Source: Thermoproteota archaeon (lineage in GTDB: Archaea > Korarchaeota > JAOZGF01 > JAOZFZ01). Taken from it: a stretch of DNA of 64,000 nt. Every line of letters starts with the position of its first letter. Within the stretch, counting starts at the first letter, position 1. The stretch lies in contig JAOZFT010000004.1 in assembly GCA_027492035.1 (NCBI GenBank), forward strand, positions 64,001 to 128,000, read 5' to 3'. Positions 15,980-30,192 of the stretch are shown here, one piece after another. Made by a program: the position numbers and the translations under genes. Below the pieces are notes generated by a model. The model was not told where the DNA came from, made no database searches, and saw only the letters and a program-made list of their open reading frames with translations.

Positions 15980-16657
15980 GTGCCACCTGACTTGCTGACA
16001 GAAATAAAGGAAGCATTAATTTTTGGGAAATACGATACAGTAGAGAAAAAGGTAAATGAAGCATTGAAAAAGAAAGTTCCACCAATGAAAATCCTAAATG
16101 AAGCCTTAATTGAAGGAATGAAAGAAGTCGGGAGGAAATGGATTGATGGCGAAGTTTTTCTAGCCGACGTAATGATGTCAGCTGAAGCAATGAGGAAGGG
16201 AATGAATTTAATTGAGCCATTAATTTCTAAACCAGGAAAGGAAAGGAAGATTAAGGGCAAAGTGTTAATTGCAACCATTTATACCGACATCCATGACATA
16301 GGGAAGAAAATAGTTGCAGCTTTACTGCAAGCTGAGGGGTACGAAGTAATTGATTTAGGAGTTGATGTCCCACCTTCAAAAATAATTGAGGAGGCTTTAA
16401 AGAACAAAGTGGATTTAATTGGTGTTTCATGCCTCTTAACAACCTCTATTCTCTACATAAAAGACTTAATTGACTTCCTTTCCACAAGGAAGCTGAGGAA
16501 TAAATTTATTGTTGCAGTTGGAGGAGCTGCTTTAACAAAAGATAAATCTGAGGAGATAGGGGCTGATCTCTACGCCGAAACAGCGGAGGAAGCAATTAAA
16601 GAAATAAATGAAAAAATTAAAGAGTTTAAAGCAAGAGGTAAGGAGGGAAATGATTGA
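15980..16657 (+). CDS. Methyltransferase cognate corrinoid protein (MtmC/MtbC-like)
   Basis: B12-cap helical domain plus DIHDIGK, DLGVDVP, VGGA motifs. Confidence 0.92.
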   Translation: MPPDLLTEIKEALIFGKYDTVEKKVNEALKKKVPPMKILNEALIEGMKEVGRKWIDGEVFLADVMMSAEAMRKGMNLIEPLISKPGKERKIKGKVLIATIYTDIHDIGKKIVAALLQAEGYEVIDLGVDVPPSKIIEEALKNKVDLIGVSCLLTTSILYIKDLIDFLSTRKLRNKFIVAVGGAALTKDKSEEIGADLYAETAEEAIKEINEKIKEFKARGKEGND

Positions 16658-18014
16658 CCCCTGGGAGATTATAGGAAGGGGGGAGGAGGGACCCCACATA
16701 CCTGAAAAAGAATTTGACATGAACCTTTTCAAAAAACTAGCTTCTTTAGAGAAAGAGTACGAAATAAAATTCAACGGAGAGCCCCTCCTTCAGGATAAAC
16801 AAATGATAAACTCAATTTATGAAGCAGGTTTAGAGTTAGCTGTAGAAACAGGTTTCTATTTGCTTGACACACAAAGGAGAATTCTTTTCACAGAGGATGA
16901 AATAAAGTATTATTTATCTAAATCCAAGAAAAAACTAGTTTTAGGCGAAGGGAAAGAAGCTGAAGAATTGGTGAAAAGGGAAATCAATGACAAGAAACCT
17001 CCTTTGTTAATAGCAGGAATGGCTGGAACCCCTTTACCGGAAAGGGATTTCTTTATTAAAAGCGCCATGTCATACGTTAAAGAAGAGGTGGTGAAGGGTT
17101 TAGATCATGGCTCAATAACATCAGTTGAAGGGAGAGAAGTAAGAACTGGAAGTCCTTTAGAAATTCATGCAACTAGAAGAGAGATAACTTGGTTAAGGGA
17201 GGCTTTGCAGAGGGTAGGTAGACCTGGTTTACATTTACTAGACGGGGAATCAAGCATAACTTCAAAGGGAGTTTTATCTGTGCTTTCACCAAACTATTTA
17301 AGAAAAACAGACGCATACTTTGTGCCGGTGCTAAATGAAATGAAGACAGATTACGTTAGGTTAAGTAAAGCATTAGCTGGAACAGAATACGGTTGTTTAA
17401 TTGCGAGCTTGGTTGACCCAATTCTTGGAGGATACTCAAGAGGCCCAGAAGGAACAGCTATTTGTTCAATTGCAGAGTTAATACTGAGCAAAATAATTTA
17501 TCAAGCCAACTATTTTCTCCTACATCCCTCAGATATAAGGGTGAAGTCAACAACCACACCTCAGTGTACATGGGTCCTAGGTGCAGTAGGGCAAGCAATA
17601 AGTAAGAACACAGACCTTCTTGTTTTTGCAGATGTTTGGGTTACTTCAGGAGCAGGCACCGAAACTGTTTTCCAAGAAATAGTTCCTAACACCTTAGTGG
17701 CTACCTACTCTTCACTGCATTTATTGGGGCCTGTTACCGCTTGCGGTTTATTACCTAACGGTACAGGTCTTGAGGCAAGATACATGGGGGAAATAGCTGA
17801 AACAACAGCAAAGAAACAGCTTAAACCGGAGATAATTAACGAAGTAGCTTCCCGTTACTTAAATCTCTACATTAACAAGTTATCTTCACCAGATTTAGGA
17901 ATTAGTTTTAAAGGTCTTTACAACATGGAGAAAGTGACACCGAGAAAAGAGTATCTGAACACCTTTGTCGCTAACTTTGAAAAGTTTAAGAAAGAAATAG
18001 GTATCCACGATTAA
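16650..18014 (+). CDS. Monomethylamine:corrinoid methyltransferase MtmB-family protein lacking pyrrolysine
   Basis: GSPLE, GRPG, ELK/EMK-D, GGYSRGPEGTAI, GAGTE, TGLEARYMGE MtmB motifs; ATG 16650 after AGGAGGG; no in-frame TAG. Confidence 0.88.
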   Translation: MIDPWEIIGRGEEGPHIPEKEFDMNLFKKLASLEKEYEIKFNGEPLLQDKQMINSIYEAGLELAVETGFYLLDTQRRILFTEDEIKYYLSKSKKKLVLGEGKEAEELVKREINDKKPPLLIAGMAGTPLPERDFFIKSAMSYVKEEVVKGLDHGSITSVEGREVRTGSPLEIHATRREITWLREALQRVGRPGLHLLDGESSITSKGVLSVLSPNYLRKTDAYFVPVLNEMKTDYVRLSKALAGTEYGCLIASLVDPILGGYSRGPEGTAICSIAELILSKIIYQANYFLLHPSDIRVKSTTTPQCTWVLGAVGQAISKNTDLLVFADVWVTSGAGTETVFQEIVPNTLVATYSSLHLLGPVTACGLLPNGTGLEARYMGEIAETTAKKQLKPEIINEVASRYLNLYINKLSSPDLGISFKGLYNMEKVTPRKEYLNTFVANFEKFKKEIGIHD

Positions 18015-18051: not shown

Positions 18052-19422
18052 TCATTGACGTAACCATTTCTTTTCAAGAAACCCTTTGATTTCTCTTGAA
18101 TCAAAAGGCCCAACCAGGACTTCCCAGCCGCTAACATCCTCTATTTCTCCACCTAATTTAGCTGCCCTACCTGGAATAATTATTTTCTTATGTTTAACCT
18201 TTTCTTCAATTCTGTTTTCTTTAATGAGTCTAGCTACACTGTCAGGGTTTATTTTATTCCCTGCAACTGAAGTGTTGACACTTAGCCCTCCTGTGTCAAC
18301 AACAAGCAAGTAAGTTGAAATTCCTTGAATTTTTAAGTCATTTGAAACTATGTGGTAGGTTAGAGAGTAGTTTGTAGTCATCATTACGGGAGAGTTTTCG
18401 TCAGGAGACCCTATCACGTAAAGTCCTGGTTTTATTTGTAACGGAATCCTTGGGTCGATGTAGATTGCTTGTCTTAGCAACATTAAAGGAAGAACTGCCC
18501 ATTTTACGATGTTGGAGAGGATAATTATTCCTCCATACCTTAGAAGAAAGGCTGCTGATGCCATTACCTCCCAGTAATCCTTAAAATTGCCATTATTTAC
18601 CTTGATCAAGTTTGGGAAAACCAAAGTCGGGTAACCTAGAGTTTTAATTTTCTTCTCAACAGCTCCCCTCCTAATAATTGTTAGTGAACTTATTTCATCC
18701 ATTAAGTTTTGACCAGGAGGAATTATTAATATTTCATTAACTCCGAATTGATTTAATCTGGTAATTAAGGTTTTAACTTCCTCTAGATTGCTTCCATGAA
18801 CAGCTACGGGGGTTTTAAATTTCTTTGCAAGCACAGCCATTTGATTCACGTTCATTGACGTAACTGGACATATTAAGGGTTTATCTTCACCCACAAACTC
18901 TAAAGCTTTCATTAAAGAGTAGGGAGTAGTGCTGCAAAGAATTAATGGGAGATTTGTGTGTTGTTTCACTATTTTTAAGGTTTCTACAAATTTTTCAGCG
19001 TTACCAGAAACAGACTTCACAGCAAACATGTTCAGTTTTAACGTCTGCCCCATTCTCTCAATTCTAAATTCTTCAGCTTCCTTTATTTTTTCAATTATTT
19101 CCTCGCTAGACATTCTGTCACTTATTTCTACTGCGAACAAAGCTTCATTGTAGAATTTCTCTTCATGTCTAAACGCAACTTTCTCTCCCCCTATAACTAC
19201 TTTGTTTCTTCCAGTACCTATCTCAACTTTTACAACTGGGGGAGCAGTTTTTGTTAAAAGTGCATCCTTAGCTTCCTCGCTTAAGTAGGGGCATTGTGAA
19301 GGGTTTGCCTTCCCTTCAACTATTTTGAAAGCGAACGCCATACAAGTAGGTACCCCGCATTCTCCACAGTTCTTTTTGGGAAGAAGTTTATAGATGTCGG
19401 TAGGACTTATTTTTTTAGCCAT
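18052..19422 (-). CDS. cdhE: Corrinoid Fe-S protein large subunit (ACDS gamma), second copy
   Basis: LPKKNCGECGVPTCMAFA...CP; DPRIP, TTNYSLTY, IIIPG, VLVGP; probable ATG 19422. Confidence 0.92.
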   Translation of the reverse strand: MAKKISPTDIYKLLPKKNCGECGVPTCMAFAFKIVEGKANPSQCPYLSEEAKDALLTKTAPPVVKVEIGTGRNKVVIGGEKVAFRHEEKFYNEALFAVEISDRMSSEEIIEKIKEAEEFRIERMGQTLKLNMFAVKSVSGNAEKFVETLKIVKQHTNLPLILCSTTPYSLMKALEFVGEDKPLICPVTSMNVNQMAVLAKKFKTPVAVHGSNLEEVKTLITRLNQFGVNEILIIPPGQNLMDEISSLTIIRRGAVEKKIKTLGYPTLVFPNLIKVNNGNFKDYWEVMASAAFLLRYGGIIILSNIVKWAVLPLMLLRQAIYIDPRIPLQIKPGLYVIGSPDENSPVMMTTNYSLTYHIVSNDLKIQGISTYLLVVDTGGLSVNTSVAGNKINPDSVARLIKENRIEEKVKHKKIIIPGRAAKLGGEIEDVSGWEVLVGPFDSREIKGFLEKKWLRQ

Positions 19423-19433
19423 ATTTGCCGCCT

Positions 19434-20441
19434 TTACCTGGTTTTTAACCACTCCTCCACAGTTATAAACTGCTTAGGTTCATTGAAGAAATTATTAACG
19501 AATTCATTTATCAGCTTCGCTGCTTCAGGGTGTAGGGATGAAGATATGTTTGCTCCAGCCATTATCCCAGTTATTGCCGTTAAAACTTCGAAAGTTATTC
19601 CTGTTTTTTCTGTTTCGAGTTTATCTTCTTCCTGAAGTTCCCTTGCAAGCCAGCTTTCACTTGAAAAAATAATGCTTGGACTTTGAAGGATTTTGTCTCC
19701 TCTAAGGGCCCTTATTTTTACTCTTTCAAGCGTTGAAAAAGTATATTCGATGCCGTAACCTAAAGCCCCCGTGGTCACATCCATAATTATTTCTTTATTT
19801 GTTAATCCAAGGTTTAAGAGGGAGGTATTAAGTTTAAGTGCTTGGTTTACATCCATGTTTGTTTTTGCAAGTACAGGGTGTTTCTTTTCCAGACAAGCCT
19901 TACCTATTTCTTGGAAAGCATTAGTGTACACAGGCCCTATTAAACATTTTTCTCCTTCACATATTTCAGCTGATTTCGTCAATATTTCATTGTTTTTCCT
20001 GTAATCATCCATTTCAATGATGTCCATTACCCCTGTAATTAGGAGGGGGACCTTAACTGCTTGAAGAACTTCCTCAATAACGTTACTTATCTCTTTTTTG
20101 AAAGTTTCATTCCTTATAGAGAAGGCATCTGTCAATCTTAAGTTAACCATTTCTGCTTTAAATTTATTAACAGCTTCTCTACTCCATTCAACAGGGTTAT
20201 CTACCAAGTCACCGAAGAAATTAAACAGGGAACCGGGTAAAGGAGCATGGTAACAATACACTTCGTGAGCTATTCTTGGGGGGTTAGGGTTGATCCCTTC
20301 AAAACTGTAGAGAGGTAAGTATTTGTCTCCCCCTACAGTTACTGAGTAACTTCTAGTTCCCCCTTCAGTTTTTGTGGCCCCAATCTCAACTTCTTTAATT
20401 TCGCCCTCATATTTTTCGAAAGAAATGGGAATACTTGACAT
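19434..20441 (-). CDS. cdhD: Corrinoid Fe-S protein small subunit (ACDS delta), second copy without N-terminal extension
   Basis: EVEIGAT..GGTR, VLQAVKVPL, MDVTTGALGYGIEY, HPEA; probable ATG 20441 after GGTGA. Confidence 0.9.
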   Translation of the reverse strand: MSSIPISFEKYEGEIKEVEIGATKTEGGTRSYSVTVGGDKYLPLYSFEGINPNPPRIAHEVYCYHAPLPGSLFNFFGDLVDNPVEWSREAVNKFKAEMVNLRLTDAFSIRNETFKKEISNVIEEVLQAVKVPLLITGVMDIIEMDDYRKNNEILTKSAEICEGEKCLIGPVYTNAFQEIGKACLEKKHPVLAKTNMDVNQALKLNTSLLNLGLTNKEIIMDVTTGALGYGIEYTFSTLERVKIRALRGDKILQSPSIIFSSESWLARELQEEDKLETEKTGITFEVLTAITGIMAGANISSSLHPEAAKLINEFVNNFFNEPKQFITVEEWLKTR

Positions 20442-20633
20442 TTCAGTTTTCACCAAAAAATTACTTGGGTGAACAGAAACCTCTTTTTCAAATAAGTTTT
20501 TCCCTTAAAACAGTTTATTTGTCTCCTTCTAGAGGTGCAAAGTTCCCTTAGGAAAGGAAACGTGACTTCAAGGATGGGGTTAACACTGGATAATTTCTTT
20601 TGTGAGAGAAAAAATGTAGGTGTTAGGAAAAAA

Positions 20634-22028
20634 TTACTTCCATTTTTCTTGCATAAATTTAGGTATTCCTGAGGAATCTAATGGCCCTACAAGCACTTTC
20701 CAACCGCTTTTTTCCTCTATTTCTCCACTTAACCTTGAAGCTCTGCCAGGGATCACTATTTTTCTATGTTTCACTTTTTCTTCAATTTTGCTTTCCTTAA
20801 TTGAATCTGCGACTCTGTCAGCAGTTAATTTCCTTCCTGCAACAGCTGAATCAACAGATAACCCTTCTGTATCAACAACTAAGAGGTAGCAATCCAGTTT
20901 AGCTGACTGTATATCTGCAGCAACTGTGTAATAGGTTAAAGCGAAGTTGGTAGTGAATAATACAGGTGAGTTTTCGTTAGGTTGTCCAAACGTCCTTATT
21001 CCTGGTTCAACAGCCACAGGTTTCCTTGGGTCTGTATATATGTTTTCTCTTAGGATAATTTGAGGCAGAAGACTCCAACCTTCCAAGTTATGAACTATTA
21101 ATGCATCTGCAAACCTCACTATCAACATACCGGCTAAATATGTTTCCTCCCATTTCTTATCCAGTATACGTCCTTCTTGAGTCCAAGCAGTTATGGGAGT
21201 GCCTATTAACGGGAAACTAAGTAATTCATCATTTTCCTTAAAAGCTGCTCTACGGATCATTGTGAAATTGTTCAGGGTTGCTGAGACTCCATCGCCTGGA
21301 AAAGTACCTGGATCTAGAACTAAATCTTCGATTCCGTACTCTTTCATAGTTTTCACCAATGACTTAAGCAATGTTATATCGTTAGGTGCAAAAATTGTTA
21401 AGGGGCAATTATACATTGAAGCTAGTTCACCCATTTTGTCCCAGTTATCTTTTGTAGCTGCGTAAATAAGAGGCTTGCTGTTTTTAGCTTCTGACAAACC
21501 TGACTTCATGACTTTAGGGTTGAAGGTGCAAAGGATCATTGGTAAACTTGTGTTTTCAACAACTGTTTTAACTGTTTCCCCGAATTTTTCAGGATCTTCT
21601 GTTACTGACCTCACAGCCACCAAGTTTAGCTTTAATTCTTTGCCTATGTAGCTATAGGAGAAGTTTTCAATTTTCTTAACCCTCTCAATTAATTCGTCTT
21701 TAGGCAGGTCATCTGTAACATCTACAGCTATAGCTGTTGGGTTTATGTAAGTTAATTCATGTCTATACATCACATACTCTCCACCTATTTTCACTTCTTT
21801 AGTTGGGCTTTTAATTACTACCTCTTTCAGAGTAGGCTTTATTAAATCCCAAATTTTTTCTCGGTTTCTTCTGTATTTACTTGTTAAAAGAGGTTTACAG
21901 GCGTCAAGTCCAATTTCCATTGCAACAAGTTTAGTTGCAAAAGCCATACAGTTTTCTAGGCCACATTCTTTACAGTTAGTTTTGGGAAGGAGTTTATAGA
22001 TGTCTAGTGGACTTAATTCTTTAGCCAA
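20634..22028 (-). CDS. cdhE: Corrinoid Fe-S protein large subunit (ACDS gamma)
   Basis: LPKTNCKECGLENCMAFA, IYTDPRKPVAVEPG, TTNFALTYYTV. Confidence 0.95.
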   Translation of the reverse strand: MAKELSPLDIYKLLPKTNCKECGLENCMAFATKLVAMEIGLDACKPLLTSKYRRNREKIWDLIKPTLKEVVIKSPTKEVKIGGEYVMYRHELTYINPTAIAVDVTDDLPKDELIERVKKIENFSYSYIGKELKLNLVAVRSVTEDPEKFGETVKTVVENTSLPMILCTFNPKVMKSGLSEAKNSKPLIYAATKDNWDKMGELASMYNCPLTIFAPNDITLLKSLVKTMKEYGIEDLVLDPGTFPGDGVSATLNNFTMIRRAAFKENDELLSFPLIGTPITAWTQEGRILDKKWEETYLAGMLIVRFADALIVHNLEGWSLLPQIILRENIYTDPRKPVAVEPGIRTFGQPNENSPVLFTTNFALTYYTVAADIQSAKLDCYLLVVDTEGLSVDSAVAGRKLTADRVADSIKESKIEEKVKHRKIVIPGRASRLSGEIEEKSGWKVLVGPLDSSGIPKFMQEKWK

Positions 22029-22043
22029 GTTGCGTCACCTTTT

Positions 22044-23234
22044 TCAGAATTTTTTAGTAACCCAGTTAATAACTTCCTGAGGTTTTACAGGCTTTTGCTC
22101 CACCAGCCTCTGAATTACCGACTTCACTGTTTCAACTGCTTTGGGATGCATCATCATGAATAAGTCAACTCCAGCTAAAAGCAGAGTTAATGCAGTAACC
22201 ACTTCCCATATTGGTCCTCTTAGCTCCCTAGGTTCCCATTCTGGTCCTAGTTTTATCCATGCTTCTCTAGCAGCCCAAGCATTGGTTGTGCCTGAGGATA
22301 ATGGGTGCTGCAGCTCCTCGTCGCCCATTAACGCAGCAAGCCTCGTCCTTTCCATTATAGTGAATGCATAATCTAAACCATAACCTAAAGCTGCAGTGGT
22401 TGTATCCATTATTATGTTTTCTTTGGGTAAGTACTCGTAGAGTTTACGGTCAAGTTCTTTCTGCTGCTGCATATCCATTGAAGTAAAGGCAATTACGACA
22501 TGGCCGTGCTCCTTAATAGCTTTGGCGGCTTTTTCCAGATCCATGTCCAAGGTAACTGAGTTGATAAGTATTCTTTCTCCTTCAGCAGCCTCAGCCACTT
22601 TCTCAAAAACCTGTAAATCCTTTACAGGGTCTCCGCAACCCCCTACTGTCAAGGGTACTTTAACTGCTTGAAGAACTTCCTCCACTGTTTTCGCAGCCTC
22701 ACTTGGAGAAGTGTTTTCACGTAAGGGGTCTATGCTTTCCATGTGAAGGTTTATCATTTCAGCACCGAATTTGTTGACTGCCTTTTTAGCCCATTCTGCA
22801 GGATCATCTAACACATCTCTCCAATTATTTTTCACTGCTTTAGCCATGGGTATCTTGGTGTCGAAAACATCCAGTGAAACAACAGGGGGGTGGGGAGTAG
22901 GTGATTCAAAAGTGTAAAATGCAGGAGAAGTTTCTCCTCCCACCACTACGGTTTTATCCCTAGTACCTCCTTCCTTTTTAGTGGCTCCGATTTTTACTTC
23001 AACAACTCTTCCAGGGTAAATTTGAATAGGGGGGGTGAATTCAGTCTTTAAAATTTCAGTTGGTTTTTTGATTTGTGGAACAGCGGCAGGGTAGGGAATA
23101 AACCTTTGAGGCACTGGTTCAAACTCCAACTCTGAAAATTCAGCTTCAATGTTTTCTAGGATCATTTCAGAATTGTTTAATTTTTTAATTAGGTCAAGTA
23201 TGGAGTTGAAGAAAGAATTAGCTTCCTCGCTCAA
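22044..23234 (-). CDS. cdhD: Corrinoid Fe-S protein small subunit (ACDS delta) with N-terminal extension
   Basis: DTTTAALGYGLDY, NAWAAREAW, RGPIWE, MMMHP. Confidence 0.95.
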   Translation of the reverse strand: MSEEANSFFNSILDLIKKLNNSEMILENIEAEFSELEFEPVPQRFIPYPAAVPQIKKPTEILKTEFTPPIQIYPGRVVEVKIGATKKEGGTRDKTVVVGGETSPAFYTFESPTPHPPVVSLDVFDTKIPMAKAVKNNWRDVLDDPAEWAKKAVNKFGAEMINLHMESIDPLRENTSPSEAAKTVEEVLQAVKVPLTVGGCGDPVKDLQVFEKVAEAAEGERILINSVTLDMDLEKAAKAIKEHGHVVIAFTSMDMQQQKELDRKLYEYLPKENIIMDTTTAALGYGLDYAFTIMERTRLAALMGDEELQHPLSSGTTNAWAAREAWIKLGPEWEPRELRGPIWEVVTALTLLLAGVDLFMMMHPKAVETVKSVIQRLVEQKPVKPQEVINWVTKKF

Positions 23235-23240
23235 TTAAGT

Positions 23241-23465
23241 CTACCTCTTTTCCTCTTTAGTTTTATGCAAAGTTAGTTTTTCAATACTGAGTTTAACCCC
23301 CTTAATTTTTTGAACTGATCCTTTAGAGGAGGGCTTGATGTGCATTTCATCAAAAGTTAAGTTTATGTTTTCAAGAATGGTTTCTGATTTCTCTATCTCT
23401 TCAATTAATTCTACAACTGTTTTAAGTAAAGGTTTTGGTTCCCTTCTTTCACTCAAGTTTTTCAC
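23241..23465 (-). CDS. Small ACDS-operon protein resembling CdhD N-terminal plus CdhC C-terminal extensions
   Basis: Fills the cdhC-cdhD gap exactly; probable TTG start 23456 after GGTGA; internal similarity to both neighbours (see findings). Confidence 0.8.
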   Translation of the reverse strand: MKNLSERREPKPLLKTVVELIEEIEKSETILENINLTFDEMHIKPSSKGSVQKIKGVKLSIEKLTLHKTKEEKR

Positions 23466-23467
23466 CT

Positions 23468-24883
23468 TTATCTCCTTTTCCTTTTCTTTTCTACTTTTTT
23501 AAGAAGCAATTTCTCGATGTTGATTTTTGCACCTTTAATGCTGATTTTAAAGTTTCCAATTGGTAGCGGTAAAGGCATTCCTTGGACAGGTACTCCAGCT
23601 GCAGGTACTGCTTCGATTTCTTCTTCTTCCTCTTCAGCTATAGCTTCTTCTTCCAATCCCATTTCTTTCCACCTTTCAACAACCGGGTGATTGACTTTTT
23701 CCAGGAACTCTTTTAATTCATCTATGTTCTGCACATCTTTCTCTGTAGCTATTTTATCAACTACATCTTTTGGGATGAAATCTTTTACTCTTTCTTTAAA
23801 GTCTGTAGGCATCCAAACAACTCTGTGCCATCCTCCATCAACCTGCAAAAATTTGGGGGATCTTGTGTATTCTATGGAAATGCCGTGGAAACCGTCTACT
23901 TGTCTACCTCCAGCTGTTGCATCCGCCATTGTCCCAAACCTTAAACCATTGACAGCGTTACCTTTGAAGTCCCTGTGAATTAGACCCATACCGTCCACTT
24001 CAGGGATATAGAAAGCTATGCCTTCAAAACATCCACAGGATGTGTGGGGGTATCCAAAAGCAGTGTAAAGCCATACTCTTTCAATAGCACCCAAGGACTT
24101 CTCCTTTGCAGCTTTATTGGCTCCAGTGTACTCTCCCTTCCAAGGATCTAAACATTCACCTTTAGGAATTGCGAAAATTGGTCCCTTTGGGTCTATTTTT
24201 GCAGCAGCACGTCCATCATACCAACTTATTGCTCCACAATTGGAATAACGTTGGGGAGTGATTATGCAGACATGGGTAGGAGCAAAGGATTGGCAGAGGA
24301 GGCAACCGTAGAATTCATCCACTTCTTCATCCTTTAACCCTCTAGCTTTAGCGTCTCTGGCTTCATAGACTTTCAATGCCATATTGTATTGTTCCTCTAC
24401 CTTTTTTGGGTCGGTTAAGAAAGTTACTTGTATTTTTTCAATTATGGGTAATTCTGACTTATATAATCTGATCATAACTTTCCCTACAAGTTCAAAAGTG
24501 TTTAATCCTTTTTTGAAAGAGTTTTTACTTACTCTGCACCAGATGTCGTATCTCTGGTTTAAGTGCATGAATCCCTCTATGTAATTTGTGAATTCATGTA
24601 TTCTTCTTTCAATGACGCCTTCTAGATCCTCTTCCAGTTCCTTTCCTGCCACTTCCACAAGAATACCGAACGGATACGTTTTTCCCTCTTCTAAATCTTT
24701 CAAGTCAGGCCCTACAATGCTTATTTTACCATCCTCAACTTCTCCTGGTTTCTTCACTCTTACGAGTTCAAACTTTGTTTTTACCTTCGGCCCCCCTAGT
24801 TCAACATACATTTCGTTTTTTCTTATTCTTTCCCCTTCATAAACTATTCCTACGTCAACAGGAATGTCTTGAAACATGGACAT
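23468..24883 (-). CDS. cdhC: Acetyl-CoA synthase, ACDS beta subunit
   Basis: YEGERIR, FYGCLLCQSFAPTHVC, HTSCGCFE A-cluster motifs; acidic linker and C-terminal tail. Confidence 0.97.
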   Translation of the reverse strand: MSMFQDIPVDVGIVYEGERIRKNEMYVELGGPKVKTKFELVRVKKPGEVEDGKISIVGPDLKDLEEGKTYPFGILVEVAGKELEEDLEGVIERRIHEFTNYIEGFMHLNQRYDIWCRVSKNSFKKGLNTFELVGKVMIRLYKSELPIIEKIQVTFLTDPKKVEEQYNMALKVYEARDAKARGLKDEEVDEFYGCLLCQSFAPTHVCIITPQRYSNCGAISWYDGRAAAKIDPKGPIFAIPKGECLDPWKGEYTGANKAAKEKSLGAIERVWLYTAFGYPHTSCGCFEGIAFYIPEVDGMGLIHRDFKGNAVNGLRFGTMADATAGGRQVDGFHGISIEYTRSPKFLQVDGGWHRVVWMPTDFKERVKDFIPKDVVDKIATEKDVQNIDELKEFLEKVNHPVVERWKEMGLEEEAIAEEEEEEIEAVPAAGVPVQGMPLPLPIGNFKISIKGAKINIEKLLLKKVEKKRKRR

Positions 24884-25563: not shown

Positions 25564-27909
25564 TTGTCAAAAAAGGACTTAAGAGTGAAAATAGGAGAAG
25601 TTAAAACAGAAAAAGGCACAATGAAAGATTTAGAAATTTCAATTGGGAGAATATTTGAGGAGGAGTGGGAGGAACCGGTTGGCCCAACCCCCTTTCCATC
25701 AATCAAGGACTTAAGGAACTGGGACTTCAAACTCTTAAAACGTTACAAACCATTTTACATGCCTTTCTGCGATTTATGCTGTTTTTGCACCTACGGAAAA
25801 TGTGACTTGACAAAAAATAAAAGGGGAGCTTGTGGAATCGACATGGCTGGCCAACAAGCCAGGATTGTTCTGTTAGCCTGTGCAATAGGTGCAGCTACAC
25901 ATTGTGGACATGCCAGACATTTAGTAGAACACTTGATTGAGGAATATGGAAGAGATACACCTCTATCAATGGGTGAAAACGTTGAGATAGAGGCTCCACA
26001 CGTAAGGCTTGTTTGTGGAATAAGGCCAAGGAAAATAAAAGATTTAGAAATAGCACTTGATTACGTGGAAAATCAAGTAACCCATTTGCTTTCTGCCATA
26101 CATACTGGCCAAGAAGGGCACTGGATGGATTTTGAATCAAAAGTTTTCCATGCAGGCATGATTGACCACGTCGCAATGGAGATAGCTGACATCGCCCAAA
26201 TAGCAGTTTACAACTTCCCTAAAGCCGACCCAGATGCTCCGTTGGTTGAGTTAGGTGCTGGTGTTGTAGACTCTAAGAAACCAACAATACTTGTGGTGGG
26301 GCATAACGTCCCTCCAGCCATAGCTATCGCAGATTACTTGACAAAAGAAAATCTTGTAGGCAGCGTTGAAGTTGCTGGCTTATGCTGCACTGCTATAGAT
26401 TTGACAAGGTACTCTTCATTTGCAAAAATAATTGGTCCAATGAGTTGGACTTTAAGGTTTATAAGAAGCGGATTAGCAGATGTAATAGTAGTGGATGAGC
26501 AGTGTGTAAGAACAAACTTAGTTGAAGAGGCCAAGAAAATCGGGGCGCTTTTCATTGCTACTTCTGAAAAAAACTGTCAGGGCCTGCCTAACAGAACAAA
26601 TGATCCAGCGGATCAAATCGTGGATGATTTAGTGAGTGGAAAACAACCTGGAGTTTTAATTTTTGACACTGAAAAAGTTGGGGAAGTAGCTGTTAAAGCA
26701 GCTTTAGCTGTAGCACCTAAGAGGAAGAAGAAAAGATCTCTTTTAACACCCAAAGAGATCATTGAGGGATCAAAGAAATGCATTAAATGCCAAGAATGCA
26801 TAAAGGCATGCCCAGATAATTTACCAGTGATGTATGCAGTGAATGATGCCGCTCGAGGAGATCTTTCTAAGTTAGCTGAACTTTATGAGAAATGTATCGG
26901 CTGCGCCAGATGTGAAAGTGCATGCAGCGTGAATTTGCCGCTTCACACTTACATCATTTCAGCTGCAGAGAAAAAAATGACGGAAGAAAAGTTTAAGATA
27001 AGAGCCGGAAGGGGACCTATTAGCGACATAGAAATAAGGGAAGTTGGTCAACCTATCGTTTTCGGTGAAATACCTGGAGTTGTTGCCTTTGTAGGTTGTC
27101 CAAACTACGCAAATGGTGGAAAAGAAATTCCTGAAATGGTTGATGAATTTGCAAAGAGAAGATACATAATTACTCTTTCAGGATGCGCAGCCATGACAGC
27201 TGGAATGTTCAAAGATGAAGAAGGGAAGACAGTGTATGAAAAGTATCACGGCAGATTTGACGCTGGAGGAGTTGTAAACGTGGGTTCATGTGTTTCAAAC
27301 CCACACATTTCTGGGGCGGCAATAAAGATAGCTAGAATATTCGCTAAAAGGAACATAAGAGCAAACTATGAAGAAATTGCTGACTATGTTTACAACCGTA
27401 TAGGTGCAGTTGGTGTTGCATGGGGCGCTATGTCGCAAAAAGCAGCTTCAATAGCTTCAGGTTTTTGGAGACTAGGGGTTCCAGTAATCGTTGGCCCCCA
27501 TGGTTCGAAATATAGAAGAATGCTGCTTGGAAGGAAAGACAGGGATGAGGACTGGTATGTTTGGGATGCAAGGACAGGTAAAAAAGTATATGTTGGACCT
27601 GCACCGGAACACCTGTTCTACACAGCTGAAACAAAGGAGGAAGCCATGGTTATGATAGCTAAACTTTGCATAAGACCTAACGATACAACTAAGGGGAGAG
27701 CTATAAAACTGACCCACTACATAGATCTTTACAAGAAATTTTACGGTAAGTTACCTGATGACATACATCTTTACGTCAGAACAAAAGCAGATATTCCATT
27801 AACCATGAAAGATGAAATACTCGCATATTTAGAAGCTAAAGGATGGAAAGAAAAAGCAACGCCTGACCCGACACTTCTACCTCGATTAATAAGGAAAAAG
27901 GAGGGATGA
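25564..27909 (+). CDS. cdhA: CO dehydrogenase, ACDS alpha subunit
   Basis: CDLCCFCTYGKC, GHN, GLCCTA, DEQC, two extra ferredoxin motifs, GSCVSN, WGAMSQKA. Confidence 0.97.
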   Translation: MSKKDLRVKIGEVKTEKGTMKDLEISIGRIFEEEWEEPVGPTPFPSIKDLRNWDFKLLKRYKPFYMPFCDLCCFCTYGKCDLTKNKRGACGIDMAGQQARIVLLACAIGAATHCGHARHLVEHLIEEYGRDTPLSMGENVEIEAPHVRLVCGIRPRKIKDLEIALDYVENQVTHLLSAIHTGQEGHWMDFESKVFHAGMIDHVAMEIADIAQIAVYNFPKADPDAPLVELGAGVVDSKKPTILVVGHNVPPAIAIADYLTKENLVGSVEVAGLCCTAIDLTRYSSFAKIIGPMSWTLRFIRSGLADVIVVDEQCVRTNLVEEAKKIGALFIATSEKNCQGLPNRTNDPADQIVDDLVSGKQPGVLIFDTEKVGEVAVKAALAVAPKRKKKRSLLTPKEIIEGSKKCIKCQECIKACPDNLPVMYAVNDAARGDLSKLAELYEKCIGCARCESACSVNLPLHTYIISAAEKKMTEEKFKIRAGRGPISDIEIREVGQPIVFGEIPGVVAFVGCPNYANGGKEIPEMVDEFAKRRYIITLSGCAAMTAGMFKDEEGKTVYEKYHGRFDAGGVVNVGSCVSNPHISGAAIKIARIFAKRNIRANYEEIADYVYNRIGAVGVAWGAMSQKAASIASGFWRLGVPVIVGPHGSKYRRMLLGRKDRDEDWYVWDARTGKKVYVGPAPEHLFYTAETKEEAMVMIAKLCIRPNDTTKGRAIKLTHYIDLYKKFYGKLPDDIHLYVRTKADIPLTMKDEILAYLEAKGWKEKATPDPTLLPRLIRKKEG

Positions 27910-28436
27910 TGAAAATGAAACTCGAACCCTACCAAAAAGCTGAAATACCTGGACCGTCGAAAGCTTTCGCAATAAGCAATGCGAAACTGCTACTGGCTAA
28001 AATAAAGAAAGCGAAGAAGCCTTTAATGATTATTGGCCATAAATCTTTAGAGTTAGAAATAAATGGCAAATTACTTATAGACTACTTGGTTGAAATAGCG
28101 AAAAAATACAGGATACCAGTTATAACTTCTACTCCCACCTACCTAGAAATTAAGAGGAGGGGGTATGAAACAGTGTACCCAATGAATTTAATAGAGGCTG
28201 CCAGCATGGTTAAGGACCCTTCATGGACAGGGTTTGACGGAAAAGGAAATTACGACTTAGTTTTCATTGCAGGATTCCCTTACTATTATGAATGGTTGAC
28301 CTTGTCAGGTTTAAAACATTTCTCGTCAATTGAAACAATTAGTTTAGACCCTTACTATCAACCACATGCCTCATGGTCTTTTCCAACAATGAAGAAGGAA
28401 GAATGGGCCAAAATCATAAATGAACTGCTGGAATAA
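27906..28436 (+). CDS. cdhB: ACDS epsilon subunit
   Basis: KAKKPLMIIG, WTGFDGKGNYDL, LSGLKHF, YQPHASWSF; directly follows cdhA. Confidence 0.93.
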   Translation: MMKMKLEPYQKAEIPGPSKAFAISNAKLLLAKIKKAKKPLMIIGHKSLELEINGKLLIDYLVEIAKKYRIPVITSTPTYLEIKRRGYETVYPMNLIEAASMVKDPSWTGFDGKGNYDLVFIAGFPYYYEWLTLSGLKHFSSIETISLDPYYQPHASWSFPTMKKEEWAKIINELLE

Positions 28437-29575: not shown

Positions 29576-29995
29576 TCAAGTCTTCTTCCCCTTTCCAAGT
29601 AATTTTTTATAAATATTGACTAATCCGGTATTTGCGGTTATTATCTCGGAAGCCCTCGAATCTAAAGCTGAAGCTAAATGCACCGCTTCTGCAGGAGTTA
29701 GTTTCTCTTGCATAACCAATTTAAGAGCCTTAAACAGTATTTCTTCATTTAACTCAATAAGTTTTAAATTCTTAAAGAAAAGAAACATTTTAGCCTTCTC
29801 TAAAGCTATATCTCTACCTATTTCTTCATTTAATTCACCAAAAAACTTTACCCAAGTTAAAACTGAAGTACAAGCCCTAATTTCTCCTTTAACGGTTTTT
29901 AGCAAATAATTCCTGTACTTCTCCGTCTTTTCATTTAGATAACCAAGTACAGGTTCCAAAAAAACTTCTGGGAAGAAATAAATCAACTCTCTCAA
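29576..29995 (-). CDS. PIN-domain (VapC-like) protein with degenerate active site
   Basis: PIN scaffold (TSVLTW, AVHLASAL, IIT) but acidic catalytic residues substituted; start overlaps upstream AbrB-like stop (TTGA). Confidence 0.75.
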   Translation of the reverse strand: MRELIYFFPEVFLEPVLGYLNEKTEKYRNYLLKTVKGEIRACTSVLTWVKFFGELNEEIGRDIALEKAKMFLFFKNLKLIELNEEILFKALKLVMQEKLTPAEAVHLASALDSRASEIITANTGLVNIYKKLLGKGKKT

Positions 29996-30192
29996 CCCTT
30001 TTTTCTTTTATGCAAAGGGGACGAACAAAAACTTTCAATGAATTTTTCAGGTGGAAGGAGAGGCTTCAAAACTATAGCATCCCCTTTCACTTCAAATGTT
30101 ACAACGCTTCCTTCTTTTAAACCGAAATGATCTCTTATGTCCTTAGGAATCACTATTTGACCTCTTGCACCTAACTTTCTGGTGAAGTAAAT
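29992..30192 (-). CDS. AbrB/MazE/SpoVT-family antitoxin-like protein (start uncertain, possibly ATT at 30192)
   Basis: Manual translation, not in track: YFTRKLGARGQIVIPKDIRDHFGLKEGSVVTFEVKGDAIVLKP; stop TGA 29994-29992. Confidence 0.8.
   Translation of the reverse strand: MYFTRKLGARGQIVIPKDIRDHFGLKEGSVVTFEVKGDAIVLKPLLPPEKFIESFCSSPLHKRKKG

Follow-up and report, generated by a model that had tools for sequence, protein, structure and literature searches.

A small gene between cdhC and cdhD combines copies of the CdhD head and the CdhC tail and may encode a hub-associated subunit of ACDS

Introduction

What is the role of a short open reading frame that lies between cdhC and cdhD in an archaeal genome and that resembles the start of one neighbor joined to the end of the other? 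These neighbors belong to ACDS, the enzyme complex at the center of both the archaeal Wood-Ljungdahl pathway and methane formation from acetate. How this complex of approximately 2 MDa holds together was first addressed in 2026, in a preprint reporting that the N-terminal region of CdhD oligomerizes CoFeSP into hexa- to octamers (Zimmer et al., bioRxiv 2026, PMC13370988). In Methanosarcina acetivorans, according to that work, this region is a hexa- to octameric coiled coil and forms the center of ACDS. In the same source, a GFP fusion of CdhD residues 43-88 oligomerizes and mutants of Leu50/57/64 do not. The disordered C terminus of CdhC and the N terminus of CdhA are proposed there, without biochemical data, to tether to the CdhD hub, and their roles are left as proposals; one cross-link, between CdhA E15 and CdhC K452, is given (PMC13370988).

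Here, we analyzed the window, the whole stretch of 64,000 nucleotides from contig JAOZFT010000004.1 of a Korarchaeota genome. An original prediction, made from these letters, had proposed that the short reading frame (the mini-ORF) encodes an extra, catalytically empty scaffold subunit that would nucleate, fill or titrate the ACDS core. It took tails such as those of CdhC and CdhD as proposed means of oligomerizing and tethering ACDS, which agrees with the preprint, where the tethering by CdhC and CdhA is a proposal (PMC13370988). It was aware of no described cdh gene of this kind, and none was found in the literature searched, in Pfam or in NCBIfam. The preprint itself uses neither "small protein" nor "hypothetical," and likewise neither "additional subunit" nor "operon" (PMC13370988).

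Results

The mini-ORF has its own start signals inside the cdh operon

The mini-ORF was predicted to stand between cdhC and cdhD with a GGTGA-TTG start of its own. This arrangement was confirmed, with coordinates and sequences agreeing and the motif AGGTGA found 5 nt upstream of TTG 23456. The features of the locus in window coordinates are as follows.

25564..28436, plus strand: cdhA and cdhB, divergent from cdhC-mini-cdhD-cdhE
24883..23468, minus strand: cdhC, 471 aa; Pfam CdhC and ACS_CODH_B_C matches cover residues 7-403 only
23471..23557, minus strand: first parent, the CdhC C-terminal tail, CdhC residues 443-471, beyond the Pfam cover (7-403)
23467-23462, minus strand: ribosome-binding site AGGTGA of the mini-ORF, 5 nt upstream of TTG 23456
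23465..23241, minus strand: mini-ORF, 74 codons from GTG 23465 or 71 from TTG 23456; stop 23243-23241
23331..23429, minus strand: first half of the mini-protein, residues 13-45 of the 74-aa form, CdhD-head copy
23244..23330, minus strand: second half of the mini-protein, residues 46-74, linker and CdhC-tail copy
23234..22044, minus strand: cdhD, 396 aa, TTG start; Pfam CdhD match from residue 79
23115..23234, minus strand: second parent, the CdhD N-terminal head, CdhD residues 1-40; Pfam CdhD starts only at residue 79
22028..20634, minus strand: cdhE, downstream of cdhD

The AGGTGA motif, which we take to match the archaeal anti-Shine-Dalgarno sequence, directly follows the cdhC stop codon (23470-23468). 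The same layout is found at the starts of cdhE (GGTGA, 6 nt, TTG) and cdhD (GAGGTAGA, 5 nt, TTG), and the TTG-Ser-Glu start of the mini-ORF is homologous to that of cdhD. Public gene calls start the mini-ORF at GTG. Because cdhE and cdhD start alike, and because the other small proteins described below begin with MSE or MAE, TTG 23456 appears to be the likelier start, giving a protein of 71 residues. TTG starts behind a GGTGA-type ribosome site thus occur on the minus strand in three consecutive genes (mini-ORF, 23456; cdhD, 23234; cdhE, 22028). The gaps separating the mini-ORF from its neighbors measure 2-11 nt, which therefore leaves no space for a terminator. A search of the mini-protein for a catalytic domain returned neither a Pfam CdhD nor an ACS domain.

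Several further observations were made in the surroundings. Directly downstream of cdhE lies a second pair of CdhD-like (340 aa) and CdhE-like (466 aa) genes, adjoined by a pyrrolysine-free MtmB-family gene (together window 18052-20456, minus strand, and 16608-18014, plus strand). This second CdhD-like protein has no N-terminal head, and a similar second CdhD, in a 343-aa frame, is present in the genome of the sister genus (G001). The pair may represent a hub-independent corrinoid protein of a methyltransferase system. On the other side of the locus (window 29576-30153, minus strand), a 53-aa ORF overlaps a 139-aa ORF by 4 nt, and by eye the two have the look of an AbrB/SpoVT-type antitoxin and a PIN-like toxin.

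The first half of the mini-protein is related to the CdhD head

In the first half of the mini-protein, an amphipathic helix leads into an acidic segment that ends in Pro; this half has a net charge of -5, and an alpha-type hydrophobic moment extends over residues 7-27. A gap-free alignment of this half to the CdhD N terminus had been predicted, and BLASTP against the CdhD of the same genome (residues 8-40) returned exactly the pair that had been quoted, with 12/33 residues identical, 21/33 positive, no gaps and an E value of 5e-6. When CdhD residues 1-45 were used as the query against every six-frame ORF of 25 aa or more in the genome (34,932 ORFs), the mini-ORF was the top non-self match (E 0.0015). 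The first half was missed by a hidden Markov model (HMM) of 79 CdhD N termini from other genomes (rank 88, E 32), and an HMM of the 7 closest CdhD N termini gave only E 0.23. The residues S-E-x-I-L-E-N, F-x-E and the final P, which are common to the closest CdhD heads, are retained in the mini-protein. Judged by these comparisons, the first half was copied from the CdhD head of its own genome and has since drifted from the family consensus.

The charge sign of this paralogous copy is that of the family. However, in contrast to the CdhD N-terminal hub module, the mini-protein is free-standing, with its own stop codon and with no Pro-rich linker and TIM barrel after the head. An AlphaFold2 (AF2) model of CdhD built with a 42-row alignment has a helix at residues 3-20, and residues 21-40 are nonhelical (pLDDT 75-83). 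The single-sequence AF2 model of the mini-protein was poor (pLDDT 63), with a helix at residues 12-26 followed by four strands. The coiled-coil segment of M. acetivorans (CdhD residues 45-68) was compared by eye only and, as printed in the preprint, differs in not being acidic (PMC13370988).

The second half is in register with the CdhC tail

In the second half, a short Ser/Gly/Lys linker precedes a basic ..KG.K..IEK.. stretch and a Lys-rich end, with a net charge of +6. BLASTP alone gave no significant match of this half to CdhC (5/8, E 1.2), because the stretch is too short to score. The predicted alignment to the CdhC C terminus was nevertheless borne out by MAFFT, which placed the second half in register and gap-free with 39 CdhC tails. 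Counted by eye, 10/19 residues are identical to the own CdhC tail over a 19-residue stretch, and 10/15 over the 15-residue pair originally quoted. With the last 40 CdhC residues as the query, the mini-ORF was again the top non-self match among the 34,932 genome ORFs, at an E value of 1.3 that is not significant alone, and with an HMM of 83 CdhC tails from other genomes it ranked second behind CdhC itself (E 0.51). CdhD-head and CdhC-tail queries thus both select the same ORF from 34,932, and this ORF lies exactly between both query genes.

The mini-protein retains the tail residues K-G-x-K and I-E-K-L; in the first stretch of the tail copy, two hydrophobic positions of the CdhC motif are gone (F to S and I to Q). 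Like the CdhC C-terminal extension, the second half is basic and stands at the C-terminal end of its protein, but it comes without the ACS A2-A3 body and the acidic/Pro-rich linker. Such linkers, which the original prediction held to part the CdhC and CdhD tails from the catalytic domains, were seen in both sequences. The charges of the two halves (-5 and +6) compare with means of -8.0 for CdhD heads (n=79) and +6.7 for CdhC tails (n=82).

Some features of heads and tails were noted in passing. A hydrophobic pattern is common to the acidic segment of the CdhD head and the basic tail of CdhC, with charges of opposite sign, and in a composite MAFFT alignment the acidic CdhD segments were placed on basic tail columns because the two motifs share this pattern. 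In alignments from 80 loci, the CdhD heads occur in two length states, and a variant of the CdhC tail (KG-A-R/K-I-N-I-D/E-K versus KD-A-K-I-Y-A-K-K) appears to be linked to the length state of the head. This pairing could reflect coevolution or merely shared descent.

The flanking junctions point to a tandem duplication

The two ends of the mini-ORF have parallel junctions. Upstream, a Lys-rich tail and a stop codon are followed by AGGTGA, 5 nt and TTG AGT GAA; downstream, a Lys-rich tail ends in a stop codon inside AGGTAGA, followed by 5 nt and TTG AGC GAG. The mini-ORF and cdhD start 222 nt (74 codons) apart. If a tandem duplication extended from inside the cdhC tail to just behind the CdhD head, it would leave exactly such a middle gene, with the start and head of cdhD and, fused to them in frame, the tail and stop of cdhC. 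A repeat search found no long DNA repeat at the locus, the two units being only approximately 55-59% identical in DNA. From the junctions, we infer that the mini-ORF is the product of a 222-nt in-frame tandem duplication of the cdhC 3' end and the cdhD 5' end.

The reading frame has been under purifying selection

A copy made by duplication may be a functionless relic, with its frame open by chance or its DNA kept for translation coupling of cdhC and cdhD. The exact structure of the duplication junction and the narrow distribution of the gene (see below) are in keeping with such an origin, and the original prediction had itself named a decayed duplication junction as the scenario to set against it. 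We therefore compared the mini-ORF with its parents, which is the sole basis for the selection estimates on this gene. By the Nei-Gojobori method, pS and pN were 0.86 and 0.36 for the first half, 0.89 and 0.30 for the second half, and 0.87 (saturated) and 0.33 overall. Codon positions 1, 2 and 3 were identical to the parents in 28, 44 and 19 of 54 cases (Fisher, position 2 versus 3, p 1.8e-6), so that second positions are 81% identical while silent sites are saturated. A neutral copy would change all codon positions evenly, and a second-position difference of 19% would correspond to drift far below the saturated level of the third positions. Constraint at the DNA level would not specifically spare the second codon position.

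Neutral drift was also simulated with a proxy ancestor and the genome base composition, with 20,000 runs per level and indels ignored. At 0.5, 0.75 and 1.0 substitutions/site, 3.0%, 1.4% and 1.2% of runs kept an open frame, and a second-position identity of at least 0.80 was reached in 0.14%, 0% and 0% of runs at the same levels; both outcomes speak against a relic that has drifted this deep. The codon-position pattern and pN/pS thus indicate long purifying selection in the frame of the mini-ORF. Of the scenario of a decayed duplication junction, the duplication is upheld by the parallel junctions, but the decay is contradicted by these data.

The mini-protein is rare, with three near-identical proteins in 5.8 billion (3 matches among 24 candidates). 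These public variants (99, 96 and 92% identical) are all 74 aa long and keep the frame. They differ at five residues (8, 10, 47, 50 and 54), outside the helix and acidic core; the changes fall in the leader and the linker, apart from a single conservative I/V replacement where the tail motif begins. Metagenome contigs and genome contigs yielded no DNA for the 96% and 92% variants. Taking the junctions, the codon pattern and the variants together, we infer that the mini-ORF is a real, selected small gene of the cdh operon.

The mini-ORF is narrowly distributed

Among 1.84 billion representative proteins, nothing was recovered beyond the mini-ORF and a single unrelated protein of 545 aa (E 1.7e-4), the ESM Atlas gave no usable match to the mini-protein, and Rfam returned no match at E up to 1 for window positions 22800-23900. 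In its own phylum, cdhD was present at E <= 1e-20 in 10 of 43 genomes. In six of the ten, cdhC abuts or overlaps cdhD (G001, G042, G026, G035, G027 and G022), and in one (G002) the contig ends inside cdhD. The remaining three carry an ORF between the two genes, namely, the genome of the window (G000) and two genomes of genus g7 (G020 and G023). In the sister genus (G001, 94% complete), cdhC is directly followed by cdhD, a single CdhD head is found genome-wide, and there is no mini-ORF. ACDS as such can therefore do without the mini-protein.

The 80 best cdhD loci of species-representative genomes were all labeled Bathyarchaeia/-ota except two. Upstream cdhC was visible at 75 of them, the other 5 having masked bases or contig ends, and at 0/75 did more than 10 nt separate the cdhC stop from the opening of the cdhD frame. 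Three Bathyarchaeia loci (L059, L061 and L100) carry masked bases (X) over the cdhC/cdhD junction region.

Short CdhD-head copies occur between cdhC and cdhD in other lineages

The ORFs of genus g7 have 42 codons, a GTG start and their own AGGTGATC/AGGTGGTC site, and they contain the CdhD head only. Further small ORFs were sought with a profile of the head (A3, 42 rows). In a 17-genome class, 14/14 matches lay in frames of approximately 400 aa. Of 401 genomes sampled from another phylum, that of the Bathyarchaeia loci, 89 gave a match. In 6 of these 89, a match lay in a frame of 48-61 codons; this frame stood approximately 150 nt upstream of the head of cdhD, except in G383, where the match was the only one reported. 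The small ORFs (minis) of both groups are located as follows.

L015, 1303-1428 (G020), and L016, 413-538, minus strand (G023): g7 minis between cdhC and cdhD
L104-L109 (G298, G430, G139, G167, G388 and G383): six further minis of 44 to approximately 48 residues between cdhC and cdhD

Between G020 and G023, the g7 mini has 17 synonymous and 9 nonsynonymous differences (dN/dS 0.079), as compared with a dN/dS of 0.09 for the first 45 codons of cdhD and 0.049 for the 3' half of cdhC. For the further minis, dN/dS was 0.062 (L105/L108), 0.197 (L106/L107) and 0.23 (L104/L107), with L104/L106 saturated. The original prediction had suggested looking in related cdhC-cdhD gaps for conserved ORFs. Selected short ORFs were indeed found there (dN/dS 0.06-0.23), but the mini-ORF itself was absent from the sister genus.

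A profile of nine minis (A6) recovered 25 proteins of 39-74 aa (2,163 candidates, 5.8 billion proteins), which by eye fall into five types. The nine named matches are all "hypothetical protein," with the labels Nezhaarchaeota/-ales, Methanomethylicia and Nitrososphaerota. Pfam and NCBIfam hold no family for the minis; 2 of the 5 minis scanned against these databases have matches to the initial 35 positions of CdhD subfamily models (E 0.001-0.06). In the A6 alignment, L17, E25, L28 and N30 are invariant in the nine minis. Asn in the L-x-N-[VI] position was counted by eye in 23/25 minis, and the mini-ORF studied here also conforms; the same position in 79 CdhD heads is occupied by D in 67, N in 10 and G in 2. 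This count of Asn is purely descriptive, as the relatives are not independent, and it fits either one old family or convergence.

The mini-ORF of the window shares with the short minis (39-55 residues) its place, its own ribosome site and start, its CdhD-head copy and its purifying selection. However, it is the longest (71-74 aa) and has a complete head followed by a complete tail, with approximately eight Ser/Gly/Lys-rich residues as the linker between them. The Methanomethylicia-labeled type (G430/G388) is a spliced hybrid, whose last 11 residues, compared by eye, match the own CdhC tail at 8/11 positions and the own CdhD at 4/11.

The mini-protein studied here has the two-residue indel state of the CdhD heads of its own family, which 0/8 other minis with DNA have. 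It is identical at 12/34 positions to own-family CdhD heads, with its own CdhD at rank 2/17, and 25-28% identical to the other minis. The indel state and the nearness to own-family heads indicate that it probably arose separately from the other minis. We also considered whether every mini is closest to the CdhD head of its own genome; this is not so, as the cognate head ranks 2 to 11 of 17.

Discussion

The CdhD head is the oligomerizer of CoFeSP and the CdhC tail is the proposed tether of ACS, according to the preprint, and a protein built of the two would thus be placed in or on the hub (PMC13370988). We therefore consider it rather probable that the mini-protein is a small hub-associated subunit of ACDS, presuming that it is translated, binds the hub and affects stoichiometry. 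It would act as a body-less hub protomer, the helix and acidic segment of its head coassembling with CdhD heads and its basic tail taking a site of the CdhC-tail type, either on its own head or on that of a neighbor. The effect would be to set the number of CoFeSP and ACS bodies per hub or to bridge heads and tails. A complex prediction with CdhD 1-60 (A3), CdhC 425-471 (A4) and the 71-aa mini-protein, run without controls, gave no verdict, with scores of 0.05 and 0.01 against a mark of 0.32.

The same parts could also make a dominant negative microprotein, one that ties up CdhD heads, CdhC tails or both in dead-end contacts and so loosens or caps the supercomplex, for example, freeing CODH or CoFeSP. 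The mini-protein has interaction modules only and no catalytic body, its parents are described in the preprint as hub and proposed tether (PMC13370988), and the genome contains a second CdhD/CdhE pair without a head, so that free subcomplexes may matter. However, the mini-ORF lies within the operon and uses the start signals of its neighbors, which suggests fixed coexpression and not conditional titration. We regard titration as unlikely on balance.

Still less probable, in our judgment, is a helper of assembly that transiently shields the nascent CdhD head and/or CdhC tail until the hub forms and is then absent from the mature complex. The gene order cdhC-mini-cdhD would put such a helper between its two clients, and its charge dipole is complementary to both, but nothing specific supports this role, and the sister genus has the ACDS genes without the mini-ORF.

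We see very little probability that the mini-protein, though selected, has parted from ACDS and now binds a different partner. The family HMM no longer recognizes its first half, and the first stretch of its tail is altered, as might be expected after neofunctionalization, but the gene is still in the operon and keeps the conserved residues of both heads and tails. Equally improbable is the functionless relic considered above, which is the sole alternative strongly opposed by the data obtained here.

The preferred reading, a hub-associated subunit, invites comparison with known small proteins of a similar build. MicroProteins, for example, LITTLE ZIPPER in plants and Id in animals, are small and consist of no more than the interaction domain found in a larger protein. 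The mini-protein likewise derives from interaction modules of larger proteins and has no catalytic part. In contrast, those proteins regulate transcription factors and are expressed separately, whereas the mini-ORF lies inside the operon of a metabolic complex.

As regards its origin, the mini-ORF is, by the junction evidence, a clear case of gene birth from the duplication junction of two adjacent genes, and its product is a candidate sixth ACDS subunit. More tentatively, the minis may form an unrecognized class of small ACDS hub subunits, which would be free CdhD-head copies in the central scaffold, with the two-module mini-protein as a single-chain model of the head-to-tail contact; we think this wider view possible but doubtful. 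If it is true, direct binding between the acidic head of CdhD and the basic tail of CdhC would follow, and the repeated duplication of the cdhC/cdhD junction would represent evolution tuning the number of enzyme bodies per hub. Made only of proposed docking elements, the 71-residue mini-protein would be a ready-made probe of head-tail binding and of hub size.
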